Source: Candidatus Margulisiibacteriota bacterium (GTDB lineage: Bacteria; Margulisbacteria; WOR-1; JAHJIW01). Taken from it: 64,000 bases of DNA. Position 1 is the stretch's first letter. Each line of letters opens with the position of its first letter. Below are positions 8,812 through 52,439 of the stretch, one piece after another. A program made the translations under genes and the position numbers. Location of the stretch: positions 93,396 to 157,395 of the forward strand of contig JAHJIW010000010.1 in assembly GCA_018823125.1 (NCBI GenBank), in the 5' to 3' direction. The notes beneath the pieces are model-generated. The model saw only the letters and a list, made by a program, of their open reading frames with translations, had not been told where the DNA came from and ran no database searches.

Positions 8812-8850
8812 CTCTGTTATTCTTTCGTGCATTCACTTAAAAAATTTCAC
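8812..8850 (-). promoter_or_regulatory. sigma28-like promoter, copy A
   Basis: GTGAAATTT-N13-ACGAAA-N7-AGAG; same spacing as copies B-E, -10 box more degenerate. Confidence 0.6.
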
Positions 8851-8906
8851 TTTTTAAGGGTTTTTTTCTTGCGGCCACACCAAAAATTTGCTAAATTAAC
8901 ACCGCT

Positions 8907-14444: not shown

Positions 14445-14457
14445 TTTTTATTCCCCC

Positions 14458-15474
14458 CTATACATATTTATAATTAGGATCCAGTTTTGAGCGCTCATCA
14501 ATCGGGAAATACAGGGTGCCTACGCATTGCCCGTCTTTGGTTTGAAATTTTTCAATAGTTTTATCATTTAAATTTTCATGGACAACCTTGACCTTAGTTG
14601 ATACCTGATCAACGCCAAACGAGTGATTCTGCATCGAGATCTCTCCGTTGCCGGTTTTCGGATCAACCACCGGATAATTTACCCCGTGATGACCAACTTT
14701 CATTTTAGAAACCGTGCACCCTAATGCCAGCGCCAAAACACAGGCACCGTTTTGAATTCCGTAAATTGGTATTTCTCCAATTAATTTTTTTACTTCTTCA
14801 ACCGTTTTGGTTAGCCTGGTCGGATCTCCTGGTCCGGAAGAAATCACAACCTGGGAAGGTTTTTTAGCTAATATATCTTCAGCGGTAGTATTATATGAAA
14901 CGACCGCCGCATCCGGATATTTCGCCAGCGTACTATTATTGACTCCCAAATTAATGATTATGGTTTTTGCCTTTGCATCCTGGGACTTAATCTTTAAATG
15001 CTGTACTTCTTTGACTAAATCCGGCACTGCATAGGCTTTGGCTTTTTTTACCAGGCAGTCTTTATCAAAATCGGTAGTAGAAACTATTCCCCGCATCTCC
15101 CCGTTATCGCGGATATATACGGTCACCGCCTGGGTATCAATGCCTTCAATCCCAATCACATTATTTTTTTTCATAAAGTCAGCCAGTGATTCCTTGGCCT
15201 GCCAGTTGCTGTAAATTCTGCTGTTTTCTTTTACAATTAAAGCCGACGCATGGGTTTTATTGGATTCATTACAACGATCATTAATCCCGTAATTTCCAAT
15301 CAATGGGTAACCCATCGACACCAGCTTTCCCCGGTAGGCCGGATCAGTTAATATCTCCTGATAGCCCACTACTTGCGTATTAAATACCACTTCACCCGCC
15401 ACTTCCCCTTCGGCCCCAAAAGAAGTTCCCTTAAAAGTTGTTCCATCTTCTAAAACTAAAATCGCTTTTTTCAT
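14458..15474 (-). CDS. carA: carbamoyl-phosphate synthase small subunit homologue with a degenerate glutaminase site
   Basis: N-terminal domain AILVLEDG, GEVVFNT, GYQEILTDP, YPLIGNYG; canonical GICLGHQ reads GIQNGAC and QYHPE reads LYFPI; start placed at ATG 15474 after AGGGGG. Confidence 0.88.
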   Translation of the reverse strand: MKKAILVLEDGTTFKGTSFGAEGEVAGEVVFNTQVVGYQEILTDPAYRGKLVSMGYPLIGNYGINDRCNESNKTHASALIVKENSRIYSNWQAKESLADFMKKNNVIGIEGIDTQAVTVYIRDNGEMRGIVSTTDFDKDCLVKKAKAYAVPDLVKEVQHLKIKSQDAKAKTIIINLGVNNSTLAKYPDAAVVSYNTTAEDILAKKPSQVVISSGPGDPTRLTKTVEEVKKLIGEIPIYGIQNGACVLALALGCTVSKMKVGHHGVNYPVVDPKTGNGEISMQNHSFGVDQVSTKVKVVHENLNDKTIEKFQTKDGQCVGTLYFPIDERSKLDPNYKYV

Positions 15475-15504
15475 CTTTTTCCGCCCCCTTATAGTAAAAT
15501 GGCC

Positions 15505-15532
15505 AAAAAAAAAGACGTCCTGCGACGTCTTT
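15505..15532 (-). terminator. intrinsic terminator upstream of carA
   Basis: AAAGACGTC-GCAG-GACGTCTTT stem with a run of 9 U, ending about 30 nt before the carA ATG. Confidence 0.8.
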
Positions 15533-15551
15533 GTCAATCTCTAAACCGTTA
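15524..15551 (-). promoter_or_regulatory. candidate ANTAR-binding twin-hairpin RNA site
   Basis: P2 is GAC-AAAGAC-GUC (hexaloop with A1/G4, C-G closing pair) and overlaps the terminator 5' arm; weak P1 UA-ACGGUU-UA lies 6 nt upstream. Confidence 0.6.
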
Positions 15552-17568: not shown

Positions 17569-19142
<1,574 letters not shown>

Positions 19143-19154
19143 AAACTTTCCTCC

Positions 19155-20144
19155 TTAGCGTTTGATAAGCTCGTTAAATTTCTTTAGGCGGTTATACTCC
19201 ACCAGCGTCACTAAAGCTTTACTTTCGGTTTTAATGCCACATTCTTCGCAGGCCGCCACCGGATTAAGACCTCCCGGAACTACCAGCCCAACTTTTTCTA
19301 TCCCAACCGGCATACCTAAAACCGGCTCTTCTTCCTTACCTATATATAAGGCCCCGCCAAAACCAGCGGCTTCCGCTTTTTCTAACACTGACTCGACATC
19401 CTGCTTGGATACCGCTGGAATCTCGCGCAGTCCGGCTAATATTTTCCCCGAACCCTTAACGGCATCTCTGACACTGGTCATTTTACTTCTGATAAAAATT
19501 TCATGGGGATCCAAGGTTGACCCCGAATATCTAATTAAATCCGTAAAACGCAACGGTTTTCCCTTTTCGATCTGTAAAATTCCACCAAACTTAGAGTCCA
19601 GCGGAATCGAATGTTTTAATAATATGCCATTCAAGTTAATCGTGCATAAGGAGCCAAAACAAATTTTTCCCTGCGGAACAACCATGTCCCCTACTTCTTC
19701 GCCGGCTTCCGCCACCAATACCCGGTCGCCCATCCCCAATTTTTTCTTAAAAACATCCCGCATGATTTTCAAAGCGCCTTTAAAATCATTTTTATTAAAT
19801 AAAGAAATATTTAATATTACTTTCCCACTTTTTGTATTGAGATCGAAATCCATTAAATAAGCTTTGGATTCAATGCGCGAGCTAACCAAACCTACTTTTT
19901 CTGATACCCAAGCATTAGCTAGTTCTTCTTTTCCCATTTTAGTGATGGTTCTCCCTTCTTTCCAGGTTGACTCAGTTAGCTTTTGTTCATCCATAATTTT
20001 TAAGTGATAGCGCACCGCACGCTCCGTTAAATCGATCCCAAATTCCTTTAGTCGATCAGAAATATCCTTAGACCCCACCGGCTCACTCGACTCAGCGATA
20101 ATTCTTAAAATTGCGCTGGTTTTTCTTTCCATGTCTGCTGTCAT
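19155..20144 (-). CDS. nrpR: NrpR family nitrogen repressor (wHTH + one NrpR/DUF128 domain)
   Basis: ERAVRYHLKIMDE HTH, GRTITKMGKEEL, CTINLNGILLKHSIP, GGLNPVAA; start placed at ATG 20144 after AAGGAG. Confidence 0.88.
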   Translation of the reverse strand: MTADMERKTSAILRIIAESSEPVGSKDISDRLKEFGIDLTERAVRYHLKIMDEQKLTESTWKEGRTITKMGKEELANAWVSEKVGLVSSRIESKAYLMDFDLNTKSGKVILNISLFNKNDFKGALKIMRDVFKKKLGMGDRVLVAEAGEEVGDMVVPQGKICFGSLCTINLNGILLKHSIPLDSKFGGILQIEKGKPLRFTDLIRYSGSTLDPHEIFIRSKMTSVRDAVKGSGKILAGLREIPAVSKQDVESVLEKAEAAGFGGALYIGKEEEPVLGMPVGIEKVGLVVPGGLNPVAACEECGIKTESKALVTLVEYNRLKKFNELIKR

Positions 20145-20153
20145 AAATTCTCC

Positions 20154-20210
20154 TTGACTTACGGCAATCACTTACCGTATAATCATAACTAAGTTTACTG
20201 CAATTGTAAA
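20154..20210. promoter_or_regulatory. overlapping divergent nrpR/gdhA promoters with a TACGG-N10-CCGTA inverted repeat
   Basis: Plus strand TTGACT(20154)-N18-TATAAT(20178); minus strand TTTACA(20210)-N17-TATGAT(20187); inverted repeat at 20160-20179. Confidence 0.65.
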
Positions 20211-20266
20211 GAAATTATTTTTTTCGAGAGGAGGATGCCGTAAAGATCATAAGTTCCAAGTGATAA

Positions 20267-21610
<1,344 letters not shown>

Positions 21611-21631
21611 AAAGTTAACAGGCGCAAAACC

Positions 21632-21671
21632 AAAGAAAAAAGCCTTCGAGAAATCGAAGGCTTTTTCTTTT
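21632..21671. terminator. bidirectional intrinsic terminator after gdhA
   Basis: A-tract, AGCCTTCGA-GAAA-TCGAAGGCT, T-tract, between convergent genes. Confidence 0.9.
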
Positions 21672-21691
21672 ACTCTTGATCCGCGATTTTT

Positions 21692-22120
21692 TTATGAACT
21701 TATCCAAACCACATAGGCTGAATAGAAAAGATAAATGCTAACCAGGATAAGAATAATAGAATATAATTTATAGGCCCCAACTACAAACTCATCCATCTGA
21801 AGCACTGATTTGCCTGCGCTTTTTGACAGCCAATCCAAAAAATTCGGGAAAAATAAATAAAGCAAACCGAAAAACAATAAAACCAGCCAGAAAGGATGCA
21901 GCAAGCCCAGTTCAGAAGACCTGAAAGCCAATAGCGCTATCCAACCCGCCAGAGCAATAAATATAATACCCACAACATATTTATAGGGTTTCAGCAATTC
22001 ATCAAGAGAAAAAATCACCTTATTCCAAAACGCGCAAACTTGCGTTAAATACCTAGGGGCAAACAAAAGCGTTACACCAAAAACCAAAATAAAGATCCCG
22101 GCTGCTAACAAAAAAATCAT
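21692..22120 (-). CDS. hypothetical membrane protein with two similar halves
   Basis: Hydrophobic; FAPRYL...SLDELL and FFPNFL...QMDEFV repeats; AAAGGAGG RBS. Confidence 0.7.
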   Translation of the reverse strand: MIFLLAAGIFILVFGVTLLFAPRYLTQVCAFWNKVIFSLDELLKPYKYVVGIIFIALAGWIALLAFRSSELGLLHPFWLVLLFFGLLYLFFPNFLDWLSKSAGKSVLQMDEFVVGAYKLYSIILILVSIYLFYSAYVVWISS

Positions 22121-22213
22121 CGCCTATTCCTCCTTTATATTATTTAGGATTCTTAGCAAATTATGCCCCCTTTATTTTAATTGTCAAGGCTAAAAAATCA
22201 TCTTCGGATATTT

Positions 22214-23557
22214 TTACAGCGCTTCCAAATACTTATCAATTTCCCAGGGGGTAATTTGCATACGGTAGTCATCAAATTCGGCTAATTTAGCATCACGGAA
22301 ATTATCAAAGGTGTGTTTACCCAGTGCTTCCATGATTACTTCGTCTTTTTCCAATTCTTCCACGGCGCGTTTGATCGAAAATGGCAGCATGCCTACATTT
22401 AATTCGCTTAGCCGTGCCGCATCTAGCTTATATACATCTTCTTCTACCGGAGCAGGAGGCTGCATACCTTTCTTAATGCCGTCTAATCCGGTTTTTAGCA
22501 TCGCGGCAAAAGCCAGATATGGATTACAAGACGGATCCGGGCAACGCAACTCTAACCTTGTTGATTGCTCTCTTCCCGGTGAATATCTTGGGATTCGAAT
22601 TAATGCCGAGCGATTAACCTGCCCCCAACAAACGTATACCGGCGCCTCGTAGCCTGAAACTAAACGCTTGTAAGAGTTAACCGTGGGCGCCACAATCGCC
22701 GTTAAAGCTCGAGCGTGTGCTAACTGTCCAGCTAAATAGTTATGCGCGATTCCCGAAAGCTTATATTTATCGTTAGCGTCAAAGAAAACATTTTTGCCGT
22801 TTTTATCAAACAAAGATTGGTGTACGTGCATCCCCGACCCCGCCTGACCATATAACGGTTTTGGCATGAAAGAAGCATACAGATCGTGTTGAGCCGCAAT
22901 CGATTTAATGACGTATTTTAATGTAATAGTATTATCGGCTGAAGAAAGCGCATCCGAATACCGAACATCAATTTCATGCTGTCCGGGTCCAACTTCGTGG
23001 TGACTCATCTCAGATATCATATTCATATTTTCCAGAGCTAATACAATATCTTCGCGGACTTCAGAAGCTAAATCGCGGGCCGTATAATCAAAATATCCCC
23101 CGATGTCATGCGGTACAGTAGTAATATCACCATTTTGCTTTTTAAACAGATAAAACTCTACTTCAGGACCAGTCATGAATTTATATCCCATCGCTTCCGC
23201 TTCTTTGACTACCCTTTTCAAGATAGAGCGCGGATCCCCTTCAAAAGGTTCACCATCTGGAGTGTGGACATCACAAATAAAACGCGCAGATTTTTTTTCG
23301 GCAGTAGTCCACGGAATAACCCGATAAGTATCCGGGTCGGGGAATAAAATCATGTCAGATTCGCAAATACGCACAAAACCTTGAATGCTGGAACCATCAA
23401 ACCAGATCCCTTTATCTAAAACATCTTCCAGTCTTTCAATCGGGATACTGACACTTTTCATGGCTCCTAAAATATCGATAAACTGCAGAAAAATAAATTT
23501 AATACCATCGGCGCGGGCTTGTTCCAATACTTTTTTCTTAGATAAATTTAATGACAC
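22214..23557 (-). CDS. glnA: glutamine synthetase type I
   Basis: FDGSSIQG, HHEVGPGQHE, FMPKP, GSGMHVH, NSYKRL, RLELRCPDP; GTG start at 23557 after GGAGG. Confidence 0.96.
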   Translation of the reverse strand: MSLNLSKKKVLEQARADGIKFIFLQFIDILGAMKSVSIPIERLEDVLDKGIWFDGSSIQGFVRICESDMILFPDPDTYRVIPWTTAEKKSARFICDVHTPDGEPFEGDPRSILKRVVKEAEAMGYKFMTGPEVEFYLFKKQNGDITTVPHDIGGYFDYTARDLASEVREDIVLALENMNMISEMSHHEVGPGQHEIDVRYSDALSSADNTITLKYVIKSIAAQHDLYASFMPKPLYGQAGSGMHVHQSLFDKNGKNVFFDANDKYKLSGIAHNYLAGQLAHARALTAIVAPTVNSYKRLVSGYEAPVYVCWGQVNRSALIRIPRYSPGREQSTRLELRCPDPSCNPYLAFAAMLKTGLDGIKKGMQPPAPVEEDVYKLDAARLSELNVGMLPFSIKRAVEELEKDEVIMEALGKHTFDNFRDAKLAEFDDYRMQITPWEIDKYLEAL

Positions 23558-23587
23558 GGGTCGACCTCCGTTATTTAAGATTATCCG

Positions 23588-23616
23588 ATTATACAGGAGA
23601 GACAAACGCTAAGCAA
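23588..23616 (-). promoter_or_regulatory. sigma70 promoter of glnA
   Basis: TTGCTT-N17-TATAAT. Confidence 0.6.
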
Positions 23617-34057: not shown

Positions 34058-34155
34058 GATTAATCTCCTTTGGAATCAACCCAACTAGTATTCTAACAAA
34101 AAGAAGAGTTAGCGCAAAGCTGATTTGGCAATCTGAATAAAATCATGACAAAATA

Positions 34156-34193
34156 ATGAAATTTATCAATTAATTATCCGATAACTAAATAGA
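34156..34193 (+). promoter_or_regulatory. sigma28-like promoter, copy B
   Basis: ATGAAATTT-N13-CCGATA-N7-AGA. Confidence 0.7.
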
Positions 34194-34201
34194 AGGAAAA
34201 G

Positions 34202-35155
34202 ATGATTTTTATGCCAAAAATATCAAAATTAAATCGTAATCGAATTGATCTGCATGTTCATTCCACCCACTCGGACGGCAGACTATCGCCGCAAAACATA
34301 TTAAGGCAATGCTCTCAAGAAAGAGTAAATATGGTTGCGCTTGCCGATCACGATCGTCTAACTCCAGATTTACGTGCAGTCGCCCGTTCCTTAGGCATAA
34401 GATTGGTAATTAGCACTGAACTTGGATGCTATAGGAATGATCCTACAAAAATGGAGCACCCTTTACATATATTGGGGTATGGGATAGCTCCTTCTTCAAA
34501 CAAAATATTAAATAAATTAGCGGCCCTCGATGAATCCAGAAGAAATGATTGTTCCAGATTCAGGCAAGCACTGGAAGCTGAAGGGCTGGAAGTCAGAGAA
34601 GAAGATGTATTAAGAGAAGCCAAGGGACAAATCCCGCGGCGCTTCCATTACTCCGGCGCAACCGCAAAAAATCCAAATAATTTTGAACTATTAAGCCGAT
34701 TGTCCCCTGACCCAAAACTTAAATATGCCACTTTACGTCAAATAATGTCCGATTGTGTTTCTCGAACATCCGTATTAAGTCCCGCCGAAGCAACAAATTT
34801 AATCAAAAGCTCCGGCGGTTTTCCGGTTTTAGCACATCCCTGCCATAAATCCGATGGCTGGCCTACTCCAGATTCCCCCGGCTTAGCTGAATTTATCGAA
34901 GAACATTTACCCTTGGGCTTAATCGGGATGGAATGCTACTCTTCCCATCACCAAAGCCACATGATACCGCAACTCATTAAAATTGCTACGGATTTGAACT
35001 TAGCAATAACCGGAGGGACAGATTTTCACGGAAGAGAAGGAGAAAGATTGGGAGCGATAAAATTTAAAGATGTCTCCACTTTTATTGATTTAACCGATGA
35101 TATGCTCAATCCAAGAGGATGTCAGATAATATATTCCGCATCGGATTTAGGATAA
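34202..35155 (+). CDS. PHP-domain metallophosphoesterase (YciV/TrpH-like)
   Basis: DLHVHSTHSDG, DHD, HILGYG, VLAHP, TGGTDFHG. Confidence 0.85.
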   Translation: MIFMPKISKLNRNRIDLHVHSTHSDGRLSPQNILRQCSQERVNMVALADHDRLTPDLRAVARSLGIRLVISTELGCYRNDPTKMEHPLHILGYGIAPSSNKILNKLAALDESRRNDCSRFRQALEAEGLEVREEDVLREAKGQIPRRFHYSGATAKNPNNFELLSRLSPDPKLKYATLRQIMSDCVSRTSVLSPAEATNLIKSSGGFPVLAHPCHKSDGWPTPDSPGLAEFIEEHLPLGLIGMECYSSHHQSHMIPQLIKIATDLNLAITGGTDFHGREGERLGAIKFKDVSTFIDLTDDMLNPRGCQIIYSASDLG

Positions 35156-35157
35156 TT

Positions 35158-35967
35158 ATGCAAGCTCAAATTAACAAAGTTAATAGTTTTAAATTAAATG
35201 TTTTCCCGCGAAAGCTGAGAACCCTAAACCAAACGGTTCAGGTAGAAAAAAGAAGAAACATTCTTTATCTGTTAGCTGACCACGCCGGGAGACCCGGTCC
35301 CGGCCCCAAAGCATACTTGGGCAGCATATGTACAAGAACTGGAAATATTATTTCAACGTTCGGCCGCAGCTCTGCAGTTGACGTTTTATTAGATCACCAC
35401 GGGAAATTACATTTTAAACATGGAGATGATTATTTTGGCCAGCTTGAAGTAGAAGTTATCTTGCCAGAAGAAACCACTTTAACGATGGATGCCATAACCT
35501 ATCAACATCGACCACCCTTAATCAAAAAAATGCACATCGGAAACCCGGAGCAAAAAACACTAACCCTTTCGGTATCCAGCCTCACCCTCTGGAGAGAGGT
35601 TACAACAGAAAATATCCCGGATACACAATTAGGAGACTTCAGTTTAGTTGAACAGCCTTTTCTTTTTGCTTTTGGCTTTGATGGAAAAGTTACCGTTGGC
35701 CAGGGAATTCTTCCACAAAATATAGCGGCGGCATTAGGTAAGCTGCAACAAGAGGTTCCACGTTTTGTTCACCTTACTCAAGAACCAGACCTCGGCGAAA
35801 ATTTCTTATGTCAACACGTCAATTTACCCCGAAGCCAAGTTTCATATTCGATATTGACAAGAGAAGTTCATTTATCCGGATTAAACATTGGCATCCGAGG
35901 CAATATGGACCTTGCCAGTTTTGGCCTACACTGGAATTTGGTTTTCAACTGGGGAGTAAAAGAATAA
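35158..35967 (+). CDS. hypothetical protein
   Basis: Long ORF; ATG at 35158 follows the PHP stop codon; no recognisable motif. Confidence 0.6.
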   Translation: MQAQINKVNSFKLNVFPRKLRTLNQTVQVEKRRNILYLLADHAGRPGPGPKAYLGSICTRTGNIISTFGRSSAVDVLLDHHGKLHFKHGDDYFGQLEVEVILPEETTLTMDAITYQHRPPLIKKMHIGNPEQKTLTLSVSSLTLWREVTTENIPDTQLGDFSLVEQPFLFAFGFDGKVTVGQGILPQNIAAALGKLQQEVPRFVHLTQEPDLGENFLCQHVNLPRSQVSYSILTREVHLSGLNIGIRGNMDLASFGLHWNLVFNWGVKE

Positions 35968-36004
35968 AAAATATCAATTTCCTGAAAAAATATGCCTCCT
36001 GAAA

Positions 36005-36043
36005 GTGAAATTTTTGCACGTGTATTCCGATAAATAAGCAGAG
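36005..36043 (+). promoter_or_regulatory. sigma28-like promoter, copy C
   Basis: GTGAAATTT-N13-CCGATA-N7-AGAG. Confidence 0.75.
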
Positions 36044-36069
36044 ACTTAAAGTCCAAGGTTAGGTTCGAG

Positions 36070-36105
36070 AAGCCGCCAATTTTTTTCTGGCGGTTTTTTA
36101 TTTTT
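36070..36105 (+). terminator. intrinsic terminator in the saccharopine dehydrogenase leader
   Basis: AAGCCGCCA-N9-TGGCGGTTT, continuing as TTTATTTTT, immediately before the AAAGGGG RBS. Confidence 0.75.
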
Positions 36106-36120
36106 AAAGGGGTGGTCCAT

Positions 36121-37452
36121 ATGCCAAAAGTATTAATTATGGGAGCCGGAATGGTTTCGAATCCGCTGGTAAGACACGTCTCAAGACTAAAGGGGTACCG
36201 CGTCACCGTTGCAGACCAAAACTTAAGCGCCGCACAAAGAGTGATTGGAAACCAAAGAAACTGCCGTTCAATCGCCTTAAACGCCACTGATATCGCAGCA
36301 GTAACAAGAGAAGCTAATCAGGCCGATATTGTGGTAAGCATATTGCCTCCGGAATTTCACGTTGGAGTAGCAAAAGCCTGTTTAGATGCCAATTCACATT
36401 TAGTAACCACTTCATATATCTCTCCCGACATGGAAGCCCTGCACGAACAATTTTTACAAAGAGGTCTTCTTTCTTTAAACGGGATGGGACTTGATCCGGG
36501 AATAGACATTCTTTCTGCCATGCAAATAATCCATAGAACCCAGGCCTCAGGCGGAAAGATCACCGGATTTTTCTCCGCCTGCGGCGGACTTCCTGCACCC
36601 GAAGCAAATAATAATCCCTTCGGATATAAATTTGCGTGGACGCCTTCCGGAGTTTTTAAAGCCATGACCAACGGCGCAGTTTATTTAAGAGACGGGAAAC
36701 AAGAATCGATTCCCGCTGATCAACTTTTTGCTAATCCCACGCAACATGTATTTGAAGAAATTGGCACACTCGAAGCCTACCCTAACCGCGACTCGGTTAG
36801 TTTTATTGAAAGCTTTGACCTTCAGGGGGTCAGCAACATGCTGCGCGCTACTTTTAGGTATCCAGGCTGGTGCAGATTCTGGCATAAAGCAGCCCACACC
36901 GGAATATTAAGTTTGGATCCTATCGCGAGCCCTAATTCATTGAGATTCGTGGATTTAACCAGCAGAATCATTGGCGTAAAATCATCGGCCTCTGTACGCG
37001 AAGCGTTTGCCGCAACCATTGGCGAAGAAAAAGATTCTGAAATAGTTGAAATGGCCAAATGGCTGGGACTTTTTTCAACTGACGCTATCCCGACTAGATT
37101 GGATTCACCCTTTGCGGTTATCGTTCATCTGGCCGCCAAAAGAATGAAATATGCTAAAGGTGAAAGAGACATGTCTGCCATGCAGCACGTATTTGATATT
37201 GAAACACGAGACGGAACCCGACAAAGACAAACCTCAATTCTGGTGGATTATGGTATTCCAAACGGCGATTCCTCAATGGCAAGAACAGTTGGATTAACCG
37301 CCGCCATAGGTGCAAAACTAATTGCGGAAGGAAAAATTACTGCCCGGGGAGTTATTTTACCCACTCTTCCAGAAATTTATAATCCAGCAATCGAACAACT
37401 GGAAGATATGGGAATCAAAATGGAACACCGCTTTGAAACCTTAGACGGTTAA
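36121..37452 (+). CDS. saccharopine dehydrogenase (glutamate-forming; Lys9 / AASS-SDH-like)
   Basis: KVLIMGAG, VTTSY, GLDPGID, CGGLPAPE..NNPFGYKFAW, EAYPNRDS, RATFRY, SSMARTVG. Confidence 0.88.
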   Translation: MPKVLIMGAGMVSNPLVRHVSRLKGYRVTVADQNLSAAQRVIGNQRNCRSIALNATDIAAVTREANQADIVVSILPPEFHVGVAKACLDANSHLVTTSYISPDMEALHEQFLQRGLLSLNGMGLDPGIDILSAMQIIHRTQASGGKITGFFSACGGLPAPEANNNPFGYKFAWTPSGVFKAMTNGAVYLRDGKQESIPADQLFANPTQHVFEEIGTLEAYPNRDSVSFIESFDLQGVSNMLRATFRYPGWCRFWHKAAHTGILSLDPIASPNSLRFVDLTSRIIGVKSSASVREAFAATIGEEKDSEIVEMAKWLGLFSTDAIPTRLDSPFAVIVHLAAKRMKYAKGERDMSAMQHVFDIETRDGTRQRQTSILVDYGIPNGDSSMARTVGLTAAIGAKLIAEGKITARGVILPTLPEIYNPAIEQLEDMGIKMEHRFETLDG

Positions 37453-38208
37453 TTATGATGCCGTCGGCCTTTGATTTTCCAGCTCGAATACGGGCGAGGT
37501 AAAAATTGTCATAAAGGCAGAGTCGCCTAAATAAAAATTATTTTCTGGATGGGTCCGGCTGCCGGTCAAACAAATATCCTGCGGATGAAACCAGCTCACA
37601 AACACAAACTTAATGCCCTGCCCCATCAAAGTTTGGATCGTACGCCAAAGTTCAGCCTGCTCATTCAAAAAAGAATCATTAAAATAAAATACCTTTACCT
37701 TAGCCCATCGCAGCTTTAAAAAGGGAAGCTCAATATCTTCTTCGATGTCCCGGATTACTGGGAATAGCCACTGACATTCATCAATAATTATAACTCTCGA
37801 CTTTTTGCCAGCCGCCAAAGTTTCCGCTTTCGTTTTTCTAAAGCACTCTCTTACTACCTGCGAGCTAACTTTCTCCCTGATAAATTCATATACTAGGAGC
37901 CTCTCCCCCATTTTTAAATAAGCGGCTTTTCCTAAATGTTCCACGAGTACCGGTTGAAGCACATTTTGCGCCCAGTATGTTTTACCGATCTTAGTATTAT
38001 TTCTAAAACAGTAATGGCGGTTTCTAACGCTGTCATGATAATGCCGGCCGCTAACATAGATCGATTCATATTTTTTTAGTCGGTCCACCGCCACCTGCGC
38101 GGCTTCACGGGCGGCTCCACGTCTAACTCTGTACACAAAACCGGGAACCAACTGATAATGGCCTTTCTGAATATGAGGACAGACTGGTGCCTTAATTGAA
38201 GTTCTCAT
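37453..38208 (-). CDS. hypothetical protein with degenerate P-loop NTPase motifs
   Basis: NNTKIGKT (Walker-A-like) and VIIIDE (Walker-B-like); ATG at 38208 overlaps the end of the amidohydrolase. Confidence 0.55.
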   Translation of the reverse strand: MRTSIKAPVCPHIQKGHYQLVPGFVYRVRRGAAREAAQVAVDRLKKYESIYVSGRHYHDSVRNRHYCFRNNTKIGKTYWAQNVLQPVLVEHLGKAAYLKMGERLLVYEFIREKVSSQVVRECFRKTKAETLAAGKKSRVIIIDECQWLFPVIRDIEEDIELPFLKLRWAKVKVFYFNDSFLNEQAELWRTIQTLMGQGIKFVFVSWFHPQDICLTGSRTHPENNFYLGDSAFMTIFTSPVFELENQRPTAS

Positions 38209-39784
38209 AAACCACTCCGCCATCAAAAATAGTTAAAAGCGGACGGGTCGATAGTAAATCCGGCGCCGGAATTTTAAAAAAGTCAGGACGCAATACAACC
38301 AAATCCGCAATATATCCGGGCTTTACCGCACCTTCAACTTTTTCGCGGCAGGCAGCATAGGCATTTCCATAAATATATGCCCCAAGCGCCTGCTTTAAAG
38401 TTAAACGCTGGTTAGGATACCAGCCGCCGCGCGGAGTTCCGTCTAACCGCGTCCGCTGGGTCGCAGCAAATAAGCCTTTCATGGGATTGGGGGTTTCAAT
38501 AGGAGCATCTGAACTAAAGGCCAGGGTAACTCTCGCTTCGTACATTTCTCTCATGCGATAAGCGCGGCGCGCTCTTCTTCCCAAAAACTCATTCGCAGTT
38601 GATATATCATCCGGAAGTTGTGACGGCTGCATCGATGCAATAATCCCTAACCAGGCAATACGCCTTAACTCATGGGTTCTTAAAAGTTGCACGTGTTCAA
38701 TCCTTGACCGCAAATTTGGATCAATCGATCGCGAAGCTTCAATGGCATCAATAGCATTTTTATTAGCACGCTCGCCAATGGCATGAATTGCTGCAGGAAA
38801 ACCATGTCTTGCGGACTCAACCACTTCTTCAATTAATTGATCGCGGGGAATCACTTCTTCTCCGCAGGAAAACGTGCCATTGTAAGGTTTAAACGTTAAT
38901 GCGGTTTGCGCTCCCAGCGTACCGTCAGAAATAAATTTTGTTCCCAATACCGAAAATCTATCGTCTTCTTCCACGCGCGCCGCTAAAGCCAGCTCCAGAT
39001 CTCTAAATAAAAATCCCATCCGGATCCTGAAATTTAACTGCCCGTTATCTCTCAAAGACTGATAAGCCGCATATTCTTCTCTTCCGGAAACGTCGCCAAA
39101 ACCAACCCCAAAGGTATGGGTAGAAGTTATGCCTAGCGAAAACATTTGCGGTATGCCAATGCTTAACGCAGCCTTTATGGCCTCCTGATCCGGTTTGGGT
39201 ATATGTGGCTTTACCAGATCGCAAGCTGTCTCCAAAAACACGCCGGTAGGATTACCAGCTGCATCCCTTATAATTTTTCCGCCTTCCGGATCCGCTGTGT
39301 TACGGGTAATTCCAGCTCTCTCCAATACTTCCGAATTAACCCAAAGCAAATGCGAACAATAACTAGTCAAAGCCGTTGGGATTTTTCCGGTTATCGCATC
39401 CAACTCCTGCCGGATCGGGAATCTTCCGCCAAATCTATCTTTATGCCAACCACCGCCCCGGATCCACTGCCCCACATCTAACCCTTCTGTTCTGCCTCTC
39501 ACTGCTTCCAGCATTTTTTCCGGAGTTTTAGCTTCTCTCAAGTCAAGTTGAGTCAGCCTTAATGAGTAATCAACAAAATGAGTATGGCCATCTACAAAAG
39601 CCGGCATGAGGACGGCGCCTTTCAGGTCAACATCGCTCCCCAAACAAGGTGGTGCTTTTCTTTGGGCGGGTCGCACTTCGATAATTCTTCCGTGCTGGCA
39701 TACTACATCACTAAGTCCCCGGTCAAGCCGCGGGGTTTTTGGATGGAAAACGCGGGCATTTCTCAAAACTAATCTACCTGGCAT
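38192..39784 (-). CDS. amidohydrolase family 3 (YtcJ-like) protein
   Basis: PAFVDGHTH, KFISDG, HAIGERA, RIEHVQ, FSSDAP, GYIADLVVL. Confidence 0.88.
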   Translation of the reverse strand: MPGRLVLRNARVFHPKTPRLDRGLSDVVCQHGRIIEVRPAQRKAPPCLGSDVDLKGAVLMPAFVDGHTHFVDYSLRLTQLDLREAKTPEKMLEAVRGRTEGLDVGQWIRGGGWHKDRFGGRFPIRQELDAITGKIPTALTSYCSHLLWVNSEVLERAGITRNTADPEGGKIIRDAAGNPTGVFLETACDLVKPHIPKPDQEAIKAALSIGIPQMFSLGITSTHTFGVGFGDVSGREEYAAYQSLRDNGQLNFRIRMGFLFRDLELALAARVEEDDRFSVLGTKFISDGTLGAQTALTFKPYNGTFSCGEEVIPRDQLIEEVVESARHGFPAAIHAIGERANKNAIDAIEASRSIDPNLRSRIEHVQLLRTHELRRIAWLGIIASMQPSQLPDDISTANEFLGRRARRAYRMREMYEARVTLAFSSDAPIETPNPMKGLFAATQRTRLDGTPRGGWYPNQRLTLKQALGAYIYGNAYAACREKVEGAVKPGYIADLVVLRPDFFKIPAPDLLSTRPLLTIFDGGVVYENFN

Positions 39785-39796
39785 AAAAATTCCCTC

Positions 39797-39833
39797 AAAA
39801 CAGCAAAGCCGATCCTAAAAATTTAGGATCGGC
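39797..39833 (-). terminator. intrinsic terminator between LKR and the amidohydrolase
   Basis: GCCGATCCTAAA / TTTAGGATCGGC stem followed by TTTGCTGTTTT, directly before the GAGGG RBS. Confidence 0.75.
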
Positions 39834-39849
39834 CTGCTAAAATAATAAA

Positions 39850-41283
39850 CTATATATTCACATCGTGTTTATCTTTTAATTCTGCACCGTGTTCAATTAG
39901 TGCGTCCAGCATTAATTGATTATCCGCATACCTTGGAGTAAATTCTCCTCTCCAAACAATAACCGCATTTCTTATCTGCGGCGGAAGTGAATTTCTTCCT
40001 ACAGCAAACGGTTGATTATATTCTGCGCTAGCAATACCTGAAACAAACGGCAAAAGCATACGGCTAAATTCCGCCGCCGAAACTGCCGGCAATTCACAAG
40101 GCATGGTTTCTACTGCGTTAACCGGAATCCCAGTACCGTTCACTCCATAAGTAATTCTACCGGTGCTAGGATTATATACATAAAATGGATTTTCAGGTTT
40201 AGTCCCCGCTAGCGTTCCATGCATCGGACCTTGGCCAGTAGTTGCATTAAATACGTCGCATCCTACATCGCCAATGGCTACCAAACGATTATCCGAGGTA
40301 CTTAACGCCGATGCCATAAGATCTCTCGAGACCAAAGCTGGCTGTCCAGGTTTCCAAAGCGCATTATTCATAAGCAACGTAAAGAGATGCAGATAGCGAC
40401 CCATAGTAGATTCATAAGCCTCGGGATCAGCATCTAAATCTGTTTTTGAACCCGGTCTTCCATCAATCCTCTGGTATCTTCCATTTGGTCCGATTCGGTC
40501 AAACAAAACGCTGTAAACTTCATTTCTCGAAAGCGATTGCAGGGTTGCCGGATCCAGGAGATCGCTGGGCGAAAGGCTTTTTGCTCCGAGAGCATTATAT
40601 ATTTCAAGCGAACCTTGTCCGCAGCGTCCACCACCCGTAAATCCAACAATCATGGGCGGCATACCATCTGGAAGTCCATTCTTTTTAATATCCTTTCCGA
40701 TTTTTCCTAGCTGCGCCTTGATCTGATCAATTGCATCCTCGCCAGAATAATCAAAAGCCTGCCTGACGGATAAAAATGGATTTTCAATTCCCATCACATC
40801 CAATCTTCTACCTAACAGATGTAAAGAATCAGTCATACCTACAATTCCCGCAAACCGGCCAAAAGCAACTAACCTCTCCCCCCTATCATTTGTAATATAT
40901 TCATAATCAACATAAGTTGCTCGGGCATCTACAATATTTTGCAGCATATTCATATTTTCCGGCTGTCCCTTAGTAACATGCCCAAAAAATACATAGACTC
41001 CATTTTCCTTAAAAACATCCGCCGGAATTTGTTTTACCCCAAACATCAATGGTTTCTCCGGACTTAGCTCGGTAACAATGCGGGCACCGGCATCCCGGTA
41101 CGCTTGCGCTGGATAAATCCTGAGTGGAGACCTTTGAACTGTAACTTCTAATGCATGCTGGCCGGTTAATTCCGCAACCGCAGACGGATTTAAAGTTACC
41201 CTTCTTTCATAACGATGCATCACTTCACGCGGGATCTGGACGGTTCTGGCTCTTTTTTGAACTGGTCGTGCTACGCTTGTCAT
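39850..41283 (-). CDS. lysine-ketoglutarate reductase / Lys1-type saccharopine dehydrogenase (AlaDh/PNT fold)
   Basis: YERRV, GVKQ, FFGHVTKGQ, DYEYI...RLVAFGRFAG, GDVGCD, VETMPCELP match the LKR domain of AASS; ATG at 41283 after AAAGGGGG. Confidence 0.85.
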   Translation of the reverse strand: MTSVARPVQKRARTVQIPREVMHRYERRVTLNPSAVAELTGQHALEVTVQRSPLRIYPAQAYRDAGARIVTELSPEKPLMFGVKQIPADVFKENGVYVFFGHVTKGQPENMNMLQNIVDARATYVDYEYITNDRGERLVAFGRFAGIVGMTDSLHLLGRRLDVMGIENPFLSVRQAFDYSGEDAIDQIKAQLGKIGKDIKKNGLPDGMPPMIVGFTGGGRCGQGSLEIYNALGAKSLSPSDLLDPATLQSLSRNEVYSVLFDRIGPNGRYQRIDGRPGSKTDLDADPEAYESTMGRYLHLFTLLMNNALWKPGQPALVSRDLMASALSTSDNRLVAIGDVGCDVFNATTGQGPMHGTLAGTKPENPFYVYNPSTGRITYGVNGTGIPVNAVETMPCELPAVSAAEFSRMLLPFVSGIASAEYNQPFAVGRNSLPPQIRNAVIVWRGEFTPRYADNQLMLDALIEHGAELKDKHDVNI

Positions 41284-41334
41284 ATTAATTCCCCCTTTCA
41301 TTATTATAAGTATATGTTTTGCCAAGATTCCGAT

Positions 41335-43311
41335 TTAGAATGTATCCTTTTTTGCACCTCCTTCAAACTTATCTTTTGTTAATCCCATATTTAATTTTGG
41401 CTTCATGGTCGGAAACAAGATAATATCTCGAATAGAAGCCGAGTTGGTTACCACCATAGCTAACCGGTCAATTCCAATTCCCAATCCACCCGTAGGTGGC
41501 ATCCCAATTTCTAAAGCCTGCACAAAGTTTTCATCAAAAGGATGCGCTTCCTCGTCTCCTTGCCCAGCTCTCACCACCTGTTCTTCAAAACGCAATCTTT
41601 GATCGATCGGATTATTTAATTCCGAAAAGGCATTGGCAATTTCCATTCCGCCAGCCACAAAAGCTTCAAAGCGTTCTACATATTCCGGATCCTCCGGACA
41701 GCGTTTGGCTAAAGGGGTGGTAACCGTTGGATACCGGGTCACAAAAGTGGGTTGAACCAGCTGGCTTTCGGCTAATTCTTCAAAAAGCGTGGCAATGATC
41801 CATCCACGCTGCATGTTATCTTCAAGTTCAATTCCTCTTTCTTCGGCAATGGCTCTTAAACTGTCAACACTGGCTCCCATTACCGATACCCCACCCATCT
41901 GTTCAATTGCAGCCTCCATGGTCACCCTTCTCCAGGGCGGAGCAAAATTTAGCAGCGTTCCTTGATAATCAATTTGATGTTTGCCGCAAACTTCCCTGAC
42001 AATGTGCGCCACCATAGTTTCGGTAATCCACATCATTTGCTCATAGTCAGTATAAGCCCAGTATAATTCCATGGAAGTAAACTCAGGATTATGTTTCTTA
42101 TCAATCCCTTCGTTTCTAAAAATTCTTCCAATTTCAAAAACCCTTTCGTAACCACCGGCAATCAAGCGCTTTAGATCAAGTTCGGTCGCAATGCGCAGGG
42201 TCAAATCCATACCCAAAGCATGTGATGTAGTGACAAAGGGTCGCGCAGCGGCTCCGCCGTGCATTTCCTGCAATATCGGCGTTTCAACCTCCATAAATTC
42301 ATGTCCCCATAAAAACTGGCGCATTTCGCGCACTACCTGACTGCGGGCTCTAAATCTTGCTCTAACCGAAGCATTCGAAGCCAAATGCATATAGCGTTGA
42401 CGCTGCTGAAGCTCGGGATCATCCAGTCCCATATGGGTTCCTTCTTCACTGGTTTTTCCCGGCAGAGGACGAATGGCTGATGCCAGAAGCGTATAATCTT
42501 CTATCCTTAAAGTTAATTCACCGGTCCGGGTATGAAACATGCGCCCTTGCAGCCCTAAAAAGTCACCCGTGATTATTTGTTTTCTAAATAAACCATATGC
42601 TTCTTCCCCAACTTCGTCGCTTTGCATAAAAATCTGAACACGGCCGGACTCATCTTCAATGTGTCCGAAAGAAATTCTTCCCTGTTCTCTTTTTAATACT
42701 AATCGGCCGGCAATCCTGACCTCGGTTGGCAAGGCTCCTCCCTCGCCGATTGCTTCGCACTGACTTCTTAAATCACCAATATGATGGGTCCGGTCATATT
42801 TTGTAGCGCCATAAGGATTAATCCCCTGCTCCAACAAATTTTGCACCCGGGTATACCCTTGAATTACAGTTGGGTTCCAGGTTGCAGGATATGGAGACAA
42901 AATAATGTCTGAAACTCTTAACACAACTTCGCCGCGATGATCATGACTGACATCCCCAATAAAACCAAAATTATCTCCGTTTCCCATAGAAATCCTTAAT
43001 GCATCAATGCTTTGCTGAGGGATAGATCCCTTAGCAAACATAATTTGAATTTCGCCACTTTCATCCGTAACTTTTCCTTGTGATGCTTTATGGATTTTTC
43101 CTTTAATGACTAAATTCCCGATAATTTGAATACCCTGCGGCAGGTTAGCTCCTTGCGGCAGCGCTTCGCACCGGGTTCTCAATTCTGCGACGCTGTGGGT
43201 ACGATTAAAAGTGTTGGTAGAATGGGGCTTAAAACCTCCTCGTATAACAGAATGCAGATTCCCGTATCCCCTAATCCTTGGAGCAGTTGCCTTTGAAGTT
43301 GTAGATACCAT
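41335..43311 (-). CDS. second class II lysyl-tRNA synthetase with a duplicated N-terminal OB fold
   Basis: Motif 1 EVETPIL, motif 2 FRNEGIDKKHNPEF, EIANAFSELN, motif 3 GLGIGIDR; two RTH...DESG.(I/V)QI blocks; ATG at 43311 after AAGGAG. Confidence 0.9.
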   Translation of the reverse strand: MVSTTSKATAPRIRGYGNLHSVIRGGFKPHSTNTFNRTHSVAELRTRCEALPQGANLPQGIQIIGNLVIKGKIHKASQGKVTDESGEIQIMFAKGSIPQQSIDALRISMGNGDNFGFIGDVSHDHRGEVVLRVSDIILSPYPATWNPTVIQGYTRVQNLLEQGINPYGATKYDRTHHIGDLRSQCEAIGEGGALPTEVRIAGRLVLKREQGRISFGHIEDESGRVQIFMQSDEVGEEAYGLFRKQIITGDFLGLQGRMFHTRTGELTLRIEDYTLLASAIRPLPGKTSEEGTHMGLDDPELQQRQRYMHLASNASVRARFRARSQVVREMRQFLWGHEFMEVETPILQEMHGGAAARPFVTTSHALGMDLTLRIATELDLKRLIAGGYERVFEIGRIFRNEGIDKKHNPEFTSMELYWAYTDYEQMMWITETMVAHIVREVCGKHQIDYQGTLLNFAPPWRRVTMEAAIEQMGGVSVMGASVDSLRAIAEERGIELEDNMQRGWIIATLFEELAESQLVQPTFVTRYPTVTTPLAKRCPEDPEYVERFEAFVAGGMEIANAFSELNNPIDQRLRFEEQVVRAGQGDEEAHPFDENFVQALEIGMPPTGGLGIGIDRLAMVVTNSASIRDIILFPTMKPKLNMGLTKDKFEGGAKKDTF

Positions 43312-43333
43312 TTTGTACTCCTTTCTTTTTTTC

Positions 43334-43370
43334 AAAATAAAAAAGCCGTTCCGATTTGTCGGGACGGCTT
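43334..43370 (-). terminator. intrinsic terminator in the LysRS2 leader
   Basis: AAGCCGT-c-CCGA-CAAA-TCGG-a-ACGGCTT followed by TTTTATTTT. Confidence 0.75.
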
Positions 43371-43402
43371 CTTGAACCTTTTATCAAAGATTGGACTTTT
43401 GT

Positions 43403-43441
43403 CTCTAGTAGTATATCGGGAGGTAGTTAAATAAATTTCAC
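43403..43441 (-). promoter_or_regulatory. sigma28-like promoter, copy D
   Basis: GTGAAATTT-N13-CCGATA-N7-AGAG. Confidence 0.75.
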
Positions 43442-43525
43442 TTTTTCTGGGGTTTATTTTGGGGTTAGCGGCCAAATCGAGGATAAAGCATTAAGGGCAC
43501 ATTTTGCCAGTAACTCGTTACATCT

Positions 43526-44800
43526 TCATTTTACACTCGGCAAGGTATTATATCCTTGCGGGATTACATAAATCAAAGGATTTGGCGGCAGGTGTCGTAC
43601 CGCCTCCGCTAAAGCGTCCTGCATATTCGATACGGGGATGATTTGCATTTTCTTAACCTGGGAATGATCCATTTTAGTTAACCAAATAACTTTAAAGGTT
43701 TCGGCTTTTTTAACTGCGGCATAAACGGTATGTTTTGAAATTAAAAATTGGCGCTTTAAGTCTTTAGCAATCGCTTCCGCACTGCCGATTTCAGCCCAGG
43801 CCAAATATTCGGGACGGGGATAGCCCATCTCTGATTCGGCAACTACAATTAAAACCCCACCCGGCTTCAATACGTATGAAGCATTTTCCATCGCCTTATG
43901 CGCCTGTACAAAATCAATATCTTTGGGATGCCCGCCCGCCGAAACAATCACTAAATCGGCTTTCTCCTTAACTGCTACCCGCGCATAACGATCGATAGTT
44001 TCACAACCAGAGAGATGCGCTTTTTCGATATCTCCCGAAAAGACAAAAGACAGCTCTTTATCCTGATTTAATACTACGTTAATAATAAAAGTGGGGACTA
44101 AGAGCTTCGCCGCTTCCAGCATATCCTCGTGCACCGGATTATTGATTAAGTTTCCGGTCACTGCATATTTGCGTTGTCCATGCTCTTTTATTTCGGCTAG
44201 AACAAATTTATGATTATTTTGAATGGTTTCATAAGATGAAATCCCGGGCAATGCCGTTTTGCGTCCTCCGGCAAACCCGGCAAAATAATGATAGGTAATT
44301 CCGCCGATAAAAATGCGCTTATCCGCTTCCACCGCGATCTTATTCATGAAAATTTCATTGCCGCGGGAAGTTTTGCCGATTTTGACCAAATTATTTTTAT
44401 TTTCTGAATCATGATCAAGCAGTTTTACCCGCTTTGCGGCGGCGTTGCCCACAATTTTTTCTTGTTCCGCCCGGGTATGGGAAAGATGAGTGCCTCTGGA
44501 AAAAATTACCGTAATATTTTCATCCGGAACTCCAAATTTATTGAGCTCATCTAACAGCAGCGGCAAAATTACGTCGGTTTTGGTATGACGGGTTTTATCC
44601 GGAACGCAAATGGCAACCGTATCCCCCGCTTTGATAAAATCTTTGAGCGGCGGACTATCAATCGGGCTAGAAAATGACGCGATAATCGACTGCGCCGCGT
44701 TTTTGACCGCGGGCATGGTTTTGCCTTCGAGTTTTCCTAATAATTTTCCCGGAGGCAAGTCAAATGCAACTTCAGCTTTACCGTAGTTTAGTTTAAGCAT
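43526..44800 (-). CDS. larA: LarA family nickel-pincer racemase/epimerase
   Basis: VPDKTR, GTH, DHD, HYFAGFAGGRK, NH, QAHK motifs. Confidence 0.82.
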   Translation of the reverse strand: MLKLNYGKAEVAFDLPPGKLLGKLEGKTMPAVKNAAQSIIASFSSPIDSPPLKDFIKAGDTVAICVPDKTRHTKTDVILPLLLDELNKFGVPDENITVIFSRGTHLSHTRAEQEKIVGNAAAKRVKLLDHDSENKNNLVKIGKTSRGNEIFMNKIAVEADKRIFIGGITYHYFAGFAGGRKTALPGISSYETIQNNHKFVLAEIKEHGQRKYAVTGNLINNPVHEDMLEAAKLLVPTFIINVVLNQDKELSFVFSGDIEKAHLSGCETIDRYARVAVKEKADLVIVSAGGHPKDIDFVQAHKAMENASYVLKPGGVLIVVAESEMGYPRPEYLAWAEIGSAEAIAKDLKRQFLISKHTVYAAVKKAETFKVIWLTKMDHSQVKKMQIIPVSNMQDALAEAVRHLPPNPLIYVIPQGYNTLPSVK

Positions 44801-52203: not shown

Positions 52204-52242
52204 GTGGAATTTTTAGAGTGAAAGTACGATAATAATGTAGAG
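52204..52242 (+). promoter_or_regulatory. sigma28-like promoter, copy E
   Basis: GTGGAATTT-N13-ACGATA-N7-AGAG. Confidence 0.65.
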
Positions 52243-52253
52243 GTTTCTAGAAA

Positions 52254-52439
52254 ATGAAGAAGATTAAACACGTTAATCACGCCAGTATATTAAAAGGAAT
52301 GGGATTAGGTGCCGCGGCAAGCATTTGTATTCTATTGATGGCAGCCATCGTTAAAACTCCGGTTTCTACTTCGGAAATAACTATTTTACTTTCACTACCC
52401 GTAGCCTTAGGCGCTTTTGTCGGGTACACAGTTACCTAA
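52254..52439 (+). CDS. small two-TM hypothetical protein
   Basis: 61 aa with two hydrophobic segments; preceded by promoter copy E and GAGG; 33-bp convergent overlap with rluD. Confidence 0.55.
   Translation: MKKIKHVNHASILKGMGLGAAASICILLMAAIVKTPVSTSEITILLSLPVALGAFVGYTVT

Follow-up and report, generated by a model that had tools for sequence, protein, structure and literature searches.

A lysyl-tRNA synthetase paralogue coupled to lysine-ketoglutarate reductase in Margulisbacteria: a possible lysine-catabolic module with its own synthetase

This report concerns seven open reading frames (ORFs) that lie on two strands at positions 34141-43450 of a 64-kb window, the whole stretch of DNA analysed here, from the genome of Candidatus Margulisiibacteriota bacterium (contig JAHJIW010000010.1). 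Their positions had been given in a preliminary description, and its gene identities, including a lysine-ketoglutarate reductase (LKR), a saccharopine dehydrogenase (SDH) and a second lysyl-tRNA synthetase (LysRS2), proved correct by Pfam, PDB and NCBIfam matches. The distinctive part of this island, as judged by comparison with related loci, is the coupling of a separate clade of lysyl-tRNA synthetase (LysRS) paralogues to LKR, and not the pairing of LKR with SDH. We hold with moderate confidence that the region is a lysine-catabolic regulon module with a dedicated synthetase, in which three transcription units are placed under one alternative-sigma-type promoter.

Conserved linkage of LysRS2 and LKR

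A LysRS paralogue lies directly upstream of LKR in seven of the eight distinct loci found in Margulisbacteria and Saganbacteria (the window, L001/L002, L003/L004, L007, L087, L088 and L089/L090), and the two genes are either separated by at most about 75 nucleotides (nt) or overlap. The only clade locus with no adjoining LysRS is L005, whose LKR is more distant. In a survey that scanned one genome per species, LysRS was found within 10 kb of LKR in none of 78 loci from other phyla. The closest relatives of both LKR and LysRS are named Candidatus Margulisbacteria (Margulisiibacteriota) and Saganbacteria. The preliminary description had allowed that these genes might occur together in this genome only; the LysRS2-LKR adjacency in fact recurs in six further distinct loci of the clade, in genomic surroundings that vary while the core stays constant. 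SDH, the PHP-domain phosphoesterase, the P-loop-like (AAA+-like) protein and the 282-residue protein accompany this core in the relatives in varying combinations (Table 1).

LysRS2 matches the NCBIfam lysS equivalog TIGR00499 at 564 bits (cut-off 428) and PRK00484 at 654 (cut-off 468), and it contains the Pfam domains tRNA_anti-codon (OB) and tRNA-synt_2 (class II core). It had been called a spare synthetase, and a second LysRS is indeed present: the housekeeping enzyme LysRS1 is encoded 6.6 kb away and is 46% identical. The LKR-linked LysRS proteins form a clade of their own, with members 55-61% identical to each other, while members of the housekeeping clade, which is the Margulisbacteria/Saganbacteria mainstream, are 62-78% identical to LysRS1; identity between the two clades is 45-50%. 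A list of LysU residues was mapped onto the actual E. coli lysU sequence for comparison of the active sites. All fifteen of the lysine- and ATP-binding positions checked, which we take to be G216, E240, R262, E264, H270, N271, F274, E278, Y280, E414, E421, N424, F426, E428 and R480, are conserved across seven LysRS2-clade sequences, including those that hold the epsilon-amine, and the sole change is F426Y in two of the seven. Since the lysine pocket is unchanged, LysRS2 should activate ordinary lysine. The OB anticodon-binding domain of LysRS2 is duplicated in tandem (32% identity over 123 residues, E=3e-26), the extra copy spanning residues 24-146 (window 42874-43242, minus strand); this occurs in this species only, and the proteins of the relatives are 498-515 residues long. 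A pyrrolysine-like cassette for code expansion was considered and rejected, because no dedicated tRNA gene is present and the lysine pocket is unchanged. The window and eight of the nine related loci that were scanned contain no tRNA gene at all, and L005 has only a tRNA-Pro gene, about 2 kb upstream of its LKR.

LKR and SDH correspond to both halves of eukaryotic AASS, as first described, each matching its AASS domain over its full length. LKR matches the LKR domain of human AASS at E=1e-44 as a single protein and at 1e-93 with a clade profile built from its 13 closest relatives (the match covers residues 4-446), while alanine dehydrogenases match at only 1e-9. Yeast Lys1 residues R18, K77, H96, K99 and R131, presumably the catalytic Lys/His pair and the carboxylate-binding arginines, align with R28, K84, H102, K105 and R137, which are invariant in the 13-member clade alignment. 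SDH contains the Pfam domains Sacchrp_dh_C (E=1e-70) and Sacchrp_dh_NADP (2e-19); its full-length PDB matches are 1e5l (E=3e-83), 2axq (7e-81) and the SDH domain of AASS (1e-71), and carboxyspermidine dehydrogenase (8deb) reaches only 4e-4.

The pairing of LKR and SDH is in itself nothing special. LKR homologues are found in WOR-3, Thermoplasmatales, Neomarinimicrobiota, Acidobacteriota, Cloacimonadota, Melioribacteraceae and more uncultured phyla, and of the 78 other-phyla loci 62 have SDH directly behind LKR and co-directional with it, and four more have it within 2 kb. An ALDH7-like aldehyde dehydrogenase is found near LKR in a few of these 78 loci, with no other conserved neighbour. Given this frequent pairing, the split LKR-SDH operon is a common arrangement, widespread in uncultured bacterial and archaeal phyla. 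The pairing, with the ALDH7-like gene nearby in a few loci, agrees with the catabolic saccharopine pathway known from bacteria (PMC7253579, citing Neshich 2013). The genes of the window resemble both these operons and eukaryotic AASS in that the same two families are used at full length with their catalytic residues kept. They differ in two ways: LKR and SDH lie on opposite strands, in separate units with a shared promoter type, and LKR shares its operon with genes for a LysRS paralogue and for proteins specific to the lineage, an association seen in none of the 78 loci elsewhere.

Promoters, leaders and transcription units

The island had been described as two convergent operons, both arms of which begin with a sigma28-like promoter. 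The shared motif is real: the window has exactly three copies of TGAAATTT-N13-CCGATA, at 34157, 36006 and 43440, all within the island, against 0.03 copies expected by chance. The third copy, before SDH, raises the number of transcription units from two to three, with two in the plus-strand arm, so that this part of the description had to be revised. The predicted units are the PHP gene with the gene for the 269-residue protein, SDH alone, and LysRS2-LKR-amidohydrolase-AAA+-like. The promoter recurs before orthologous units in L001, L003, L088, L089 and L093. Copies with one mismatch are found ahead of the LysRS-LKR and SDH units of L001 and L089, of the homologue of the 269-residue protein in L088 and of the AAA+-like homologue in L093; L087 has ATGAAA as its -10 element. 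The promoter class also extends beyond the island, since weaker copies precede two genes of the window that are unrelated to lysine.

The sigma28 (FliA/SigD) consensus is TAAA-N15-GCCGATAA. The island motif resembles it in its -10 element, CCGATA(A/T), in its A/T-rich -35 (GAAATTT) and in marking a small gene set, and differs in a spacing one base longer and in the -35, which here reads GTGAAATTT. With this -10 element, an A/T-rich -35 and a site count far above chance, it is a putative promoter of the sigma28 type. The window contains neither a sigma factor gene nor a flagellar gene. The first of the two unrelated genes encodes a 327-residue protein (hyp327; 7772-8755, minus strand) with no Pfam match; since it is preceded by the promoter class and leader hairpin of the lysine genes, it may share their sigma regulon. 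At the second (52205-52439, plus strand), a near-consensus GTGGAATTT-N13-ACGATA followed by GTAGAGG precedes a 61-residue hydrophobic, membrane-like ORF, which lies between coaX and a gene for a pseudouridine synthase.

The leaders of SDH and LysRS2, about 60-70 nt in length, have in common AGAGAC..AAAGTCCAA..GGTTCRAGAAGCCG and then a strong hairpin with a U-run just before the ribosome-binding site (RBS). The recurring leader (8768-8851, minus; 36006-36105, plus; 43334-43440, minus; L003 138-225) can be written as RGTGAAATTT-N13-(C/A)CGA(T/A)A, YAGAG and a hairpin RAGAAnCCG...CGG with a U-run, directly before the RBS. In the Saganbacteria locus L003 the same promoter, YAGAG, hairpin and U-run precede the PhzF-LysRS-LKR operon. 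The same leader hairpin is found at hyp327, whose upstream neighbour is divergently transcribed, so that here the hairpin cannot close an upstream gene and would be a promoter-proximal terminator. The idea that leader hairpins simply terminate upstream genes was thus ruled out for the hyp327 copy only, by its divergent neighbour. We infer that the hairpins act as promoter-proximal attenuators of SDH, LysRS2 and hyp327; the leaders match no Rfam family, and no evident antiterminator structure was seen in them. A further hairpin, between LKR and the amidohydrolase gene, is a possible partial terminator or processing site.

Gene starts were taken from the database, which has gene calls for this organism on eight further contigs. 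They revise five of the starts first given, to 43311 for LysRS2, 41283 for LKR, 36121 for SDH, 35158 for the hypothetical protein and 38208 for the AAA+-like protein. The new LKR start lies 14 codons downstream of the maximal-ORF start, and the maximal ORF of the 269-residue protein, from 35119, would encode 282 residues. The abutting stops at 37452/37453 stand as described: the SDH stop codon (TAA, 37450-37452) adjoins that of the minus-strand AAA+-like gene (37453-37455, reading TTA). With a spacer of 0 nt and no terminator between these convergent genes, antisense overlap of the two transcripts is to be expected. The convergent SDH/AAA+-like arrangement is repeated on L091, a short metagenome contig. 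The G+C content is 0.40-0.47 in the island and the same in its surroundings, so this is not a compositional island.

Table 1. Genes and regulatory features of the window, with gene orders in related loci (aa, amino acids).
Feature	Position	Strand	Basis or remark
PHP-domain phosphoesterase, TrpH/YciV-like, 317 aa	34202..35155	+	Pfam, PDB matches
269-aa protein without Pfam or PDB match	35158..35967	+	database gene call
SDH, glutamate-forming saccharopine dehydrogenase (LYS9 / AASS-SDH type), 443 aa	36121..37452	+	Pfam, PDB
AAA+-like protein, 251 aa, very small lineage-restricted family	37453..38208	-	motifs, predicted fold
Amidohydro_3 (YtcJ-like) metal-dependent hydrolase, 530 aa, HxH motif present	38192..39784	-	Pfam
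LKR, lysine-ketoglutarate reductase (AASS LKR-domain type), 477 aa	39850..41283	-	profile matches
LysRS2, class II lysyl-tRNA synthetase paralogue, 658 aa, tandem N-terminal OB domain	41335..43311	-	
LysRS1, housekeeping lysyl-tRNA synthetase, 504 aa	49904..51418	-	outside island
Putative promoter, copy 1	34157..34183	+	18 nt before PHP start; without leader hairpin
Putative promoter, copy 2	36006..36032	+	precedes SDH
Putative promoter, copy 3	43414..43440	-	precedes LysRS2
Weaker promoter copy	8851-8825	-	before 327-aa protein gene (hyp327)
Weaker promoter copy	52205-52231	+	before 61-aa membrane ORF
SDH leader, CAGAGAC..AAAGTCCAA..GGTTCGAGAAGCCG	36038..36105	+	12-bp hairpin, U-run ending ~10 nt before RBS
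LysRS2 leader, TAGAGAC..AAAGTCCAA..GGTTCAAGAAGCCG	43334..43408	-	11-bp hairpin, U-run before RBS
Hairpin between LKR and amidohydrolase	39806..39835	-	13 bp, weak U-run
L001/L002			hyp169-LysRS-LKR, convergent with SDH + radical SAM gene
L003/L004 (Saganbacteria)			PhzF-LysRS-LKR-hyp223-KamA-Kdd-KamD-KamE; KamA-, Kdd-, KamD- and KamE-like genes at L003 4833-10277, each just under NCBIfam equivalog cut-offs
L007			radical SAM-LysRS-LKR, convergent with second radical SAM gene
L087			PHP-SDH-LysRS-LKR-hyp232-TPR-second LKR-like gene, one strand; second LKR-like gene at 13852-15174, 29-33% identical to LysRS-linked LKRs and 37% to L005 LKR
L088			LysRS-LKR, convergent with homologue of the window's 269-aa protein
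L089/L090			as L001, plus AAA+-like gene
Radical SAM gene, L001	11393-12565	-	
Radical SAM gene, L087	4619-5809	-	
Radical SAM gene, L089	6769-7941	-	
Radical SAM gene, L007, first copy	4474-5784	+	
Radical SAM gene, L007, second copy	~9007-9588	-	

Lysine catabolism with a dedicated synthetase, and the alternatives

In the proposed catabolic module, LKR would condense lysine with 2-oxoglutarate to saccharopine, and SDH would cleave saccharopine to glutamate and 2-aminoadipate semialdehyde, so that the epsilon-nitrogen of lysine would end in glutamate. LysRS2, predicted to be intact and to be made from one transcript with LKR, would keep tRNA-Lys charged as the lysine pool falls or as lysine-like intermediates build up. 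The promoter-proximal terminator would add a layer of control on SDH and LysRS2. By analogy with known clusters, LysRS2 most likely safeguards translation while the cell breaks lysine down. A catabolic context is suggested by L003, where the LysRS-LKR pair, preceded by the same promoter and leader, is co-directional with KamA/Kdd/KamD/KamE-like genes of lysine fermentation. The preliminary description had left a choice between a lysine-management module and a pathway to a lysine-derived or adenylated product. The former is the better supported; given the unchanged lysine pocket of LysRS2 and the lack of a dedicated tRNA gene nearby, there is no specific sign of an adenylated product.

The preliminary description knew of no co-regulation of these genes with a spare synthetase, an amidohydrolase and a PHP enzyme; for the spare synthetase there are precedents. 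Besides hisS, which is present in histamine clusters of lactic acid bacteria, these include the cadCBA-dtpC-lysU genes of E. coli, where cadC, cadB, cadA, dtpC and lysU lie on one strand. The island is like the latter in having a second class II LysRS on the strand of a lysine-consuming enzyme with the constitutive LysRS elsewhere, and in its proposed logic, the charging of tRNA-Lys when lysine drops and a lysine analogue accumulates. It differs in using LKR and SDH of the saccharopine route, where the cad genes supply a decarboxylase and an antiporter, in that LysRS2 immediately precedes LKR, apparently on one transcript with it, and in the duplicated OB domain of the LysRS2 of this species. 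In addition, LysRS2 and LysRS1, at 46% identity, belong to clades that are old and separate, whereas LysS and LysU resemble each other much more closely. LysU is reported to be less cadaverine-sensitive than LysS (Brevet 1995, cited in PMC5078493). A further precedent is tyrS, located in the enterococcal tyramine (tdc; tdcA-tyrP) cluster and controlled by attenuation at a leader terminator (PMC3315439). The likeness is that a synthetase paralogue lies inside a cluster degrading its own amino acid, as with hisS, and that transcription passes a leader terminator (PMC3315439). The tyrS leader is a T-box of 322 nt, unlike the short leaders of the island, in which neither a T-box nor a riboswitch was recognised, and the tyrS and hisS clusters carry out decarboxylation, in contrast to the reductive condensation and oxidative cleavage proposed here. 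Both LysU, encoded next to cadBA, and the TyrS of the tyramine cluster are credited with the same protective job. On the best reading, and by this analogy, what is new would be the spare-synthetase principle, known from cad-lysU and tdc-tyrS, in a saccharopine-route cluster.

Several points weigh against the catabolic module. Four of the seven genes, encoding the PHP protein, the 269-residue protein, the amidohydrolase and the AAA+-like protein, fall outside a plain saccharopine pathway, and the relatives add a radical SAM/SPASM enzyme. The island contains no 2-aminoadipate-semialdehyde dehydrogenase or later enzyme. A sensitive Rfam covariance scan of 30000-53000 found no lysine riboswitch or T-box, its sole match being NsiR4 (E=0.43, under the gathering score). 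The presence of the promoter class before unrelated genes means that common control need not imply a common pathway, and the occurrence of LysRS1 and LysRS2 together in one genome is established for this species only.

The partner proteins may have roles in the module. The closest PDB relatives of the PHP protein are the TrpH/YciV-type phosphoesterases 3e0f (1e-10), 2yb1 (6e-9) and 7ug9 (7e-9), and its NCBIfam equivalog scores are far under the cut-offs (94 vs 400, 68 vs 375). The TrpH/YciV family includes 3',5'-bisphosphate nucleotidases (pAp phosphatase) and 5'-3' exoribonucleases (RNase AM). The 269-residue protein (282 in its maximal form) has no match in Pfam, NCBIfam, PDB or PADLOC; its only relative is a homologue in L088 (271 residues, E=1e-40 to 1e-56), which adjoins LysRS-LKR and has the same promoter type. 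The amidohydrolase matches Pfam Amidohydro_3 at E=1e-87, and its linkage to the module was found in this species only. Anti-phage defence was considered and set aside, as neither the island proteins nor the radical SAM and 169-residue proteins of the relatives have a PADLOC match.

The AAA+-like protein had been described as a degenerate P-loop protein, which agrees with its GIGKT and IDECHW motifs and its AAA+-like predicted fold. Its Walker A motif reads N-x-G-I-G-K-T, without the first glycine, and its Walker B motif IDECHW, and it also contains VFVSWLHPxD; across the family N-x-G-I-G-K-T, DEC(H/Q)W and SWLHPxD are invariant. Among 1.84 billion proteins, searched exhaustively with HMMER, the family has 12 representatives. 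A word-based homologue search found the protein itself alone, the family profile gave only noise against PDB sequences (cofilin, E=0.17), and a metagenome scan with the family alignment found two short contigs only. Its AlphaFold model has a mean confidence (pLDDT) of 77 from an 11-sequence alignment and of 34 from the single sequence. The model resembles AAA+ initiator/loader domains, best of all DnaA domain III (E=9e-5, with a TM score of only 0.4). Members of the family accompany the module in the window, L003, L087, L089 and L091; that of L094 stands alone. The divergent radical SAM protein of the relatives, repeatedly linked there to SDH, LysRS2 and LKR and without a counterpart in the window, is 390 residues long and combines a CX3CX2C motif with a C-terminal SPASM motif, CX2CX5CX3C. 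Radical SAM/SPASM enzymes belong more typically to the chemistry of cofactors, peptides or natural products.

Such partners raise the possibility, which we consider unlikely though worth weighing, that the LysRS2-LKR core forms a biosynthetic or modification pathway with the AAA+-like protein, the radical SAM/SPASM enzyme of the relatives, the PHP protein and the amidohydrolase. Lysyl-adenylate or Lys-tRNA would then lead to a lysine-derived molecule or to a peptide or protein modification, with LKR and SDH tailoring the epsilon-amine. This would give a place to the conserved, unexplained partners, among them the rare AAA+-like family, usually linked to the module, the radical SAM/SPASM enzyme of L001, L007 (in two copies), L087 and L089, and the putatively nucleotide-directed PHP esterase of the window and L087; the tight coupling of LysRS2 to LKR and the extra OB domain in this species would also fit. 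It is harder to reconcile with a LysRS2 pocket unchanged even at the epsilon-amine residues, with the absence of a dedicated tRNA gene from the window and the related loci scanned, and with the fact that no precursor-peptide or carrier gene was recognised. Accessory genes also differ by genome, the window itself having no radical SAM gene, and L003 ties the pair to classical lysine-fermentation genes. More doubtful still is a specific form of this pathway, in which LysRS2-LKR and the AAA+-like protein (in the relatives with the radical SAM/SPASM enzyme as well) would work through lysyl-adenylate or Lys-tRNA and be switched on by sigma-linked antitermination at the promoter-proximal terminators; equally doubtful is its product, which would be a novel lysine-derived metabolite or a modified peptide or protein.

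It is improbable that LysRS2 serves signalling and not translation, as a stress-induced synthase of diadenosine tetraphosphate (Ap4A, AppppA) like LysU with the PHP esterase as matching hydrolase, and that its co-location with lysine catabolism is due to no more than a shared stress or stationary-phase sigma regulon. In E. coli AppppA is made mainly by LysU, which is stress-induced (PMC5078493), the PHP protein is related to nucleotide/oligonucleotide phosphoesterases, and the promoter class also stands before unrelated genes. The adjacency, however, is specific to LKR, conserved and often translationally coupled, and the PHP gene is linked in two lineages only.

We think it very unlikely that the enzymes run in the fungal direction, from aminoadipate semialdehyde through saccharopine to lysine, with LysRS2 at the end of a biosynthesis that feeds translation. 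Enzymes of the LYS1/LYS9 type are reversible, as in the fungal aminoadipate pathway, and co-transcription of the last biosynthetic step with a synthetase would make sense. However, no homocitrate synthase, homoaconitase or aminoadipate reductase was found in or near the module, a related Margulisbacteria locus has diaminopimelate (DAP) epimerase and aspartokinase, enzymes of the DAP pathway, and L003 joins LysRS-LKR to lysine-degrading aminomutases; we know of no prokaryote that makes lysine through saccharopine. Finally, a fortuitous cluster of unrelated genes sharing a promoter type by chance, although it would suit the variable accessory genes and a promoter class that is not exclusive to the island, is extremely improbable and already contradicted by an adjacency kept in seven of eight clade loci against 0/78 elsewhere, by a core that stays together while surroundings differ, and by three perfect promoter copies where 0.03 are expected.

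Wider neighbourhood and meaning

Elsewhere in the window a pyrroline-5-carboxylate (P5C) reductase is encoded at 165-962, unlinked to the island, and carbamoyl-phosphate synthase at 11223-15537. A nitrogen-metabolism block at 17922-23605 encodes an ammonium transporter, glutamate dehydrogenase and glutamine synthetase together with an NrpR-like repressor, whose family is known chiefly from methanogens. P5C reductase can reduce the cyclic form of aminoadipate semialdehyde to pipecolate (PMC7253579). Directly upstream of the LysRS2 promoter, at 43526-44800 on the minus strand, lies a gene for a LarA-family nickel-pincer-cofactor 2-hydroxyacid racemase, whose best match is LarAH10 (459 bits, under the cut-off of 540).

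If the catabolic module with its dedicated synthetase is real, the cases of lysU/cadBA, tyrS in the tyramine cluster and hisS in the histamine cluster would become instances of a general rule, by which high-flux burning of an amino acid is accompanied by a co-expressed dedicated synthetase. This rule would then reach saccharopine-route chemistry and a deep-branching uncultured phylum that is sister to Cyanobacteria. LysRS1 and LysRS2 would offer a natural pair for studying what lets a synthetase withstand depletion of its substrate or inhibition by analogues, a few proteins specific to the lineage would gain a defined metabolic context, and the compact promoter-plus-terminator leader may be a new attenuation device. 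The split LKR-SDH operons, common in anaerobic uncultured phyla, bear on models of lysine turnover in sediments and aquifers.

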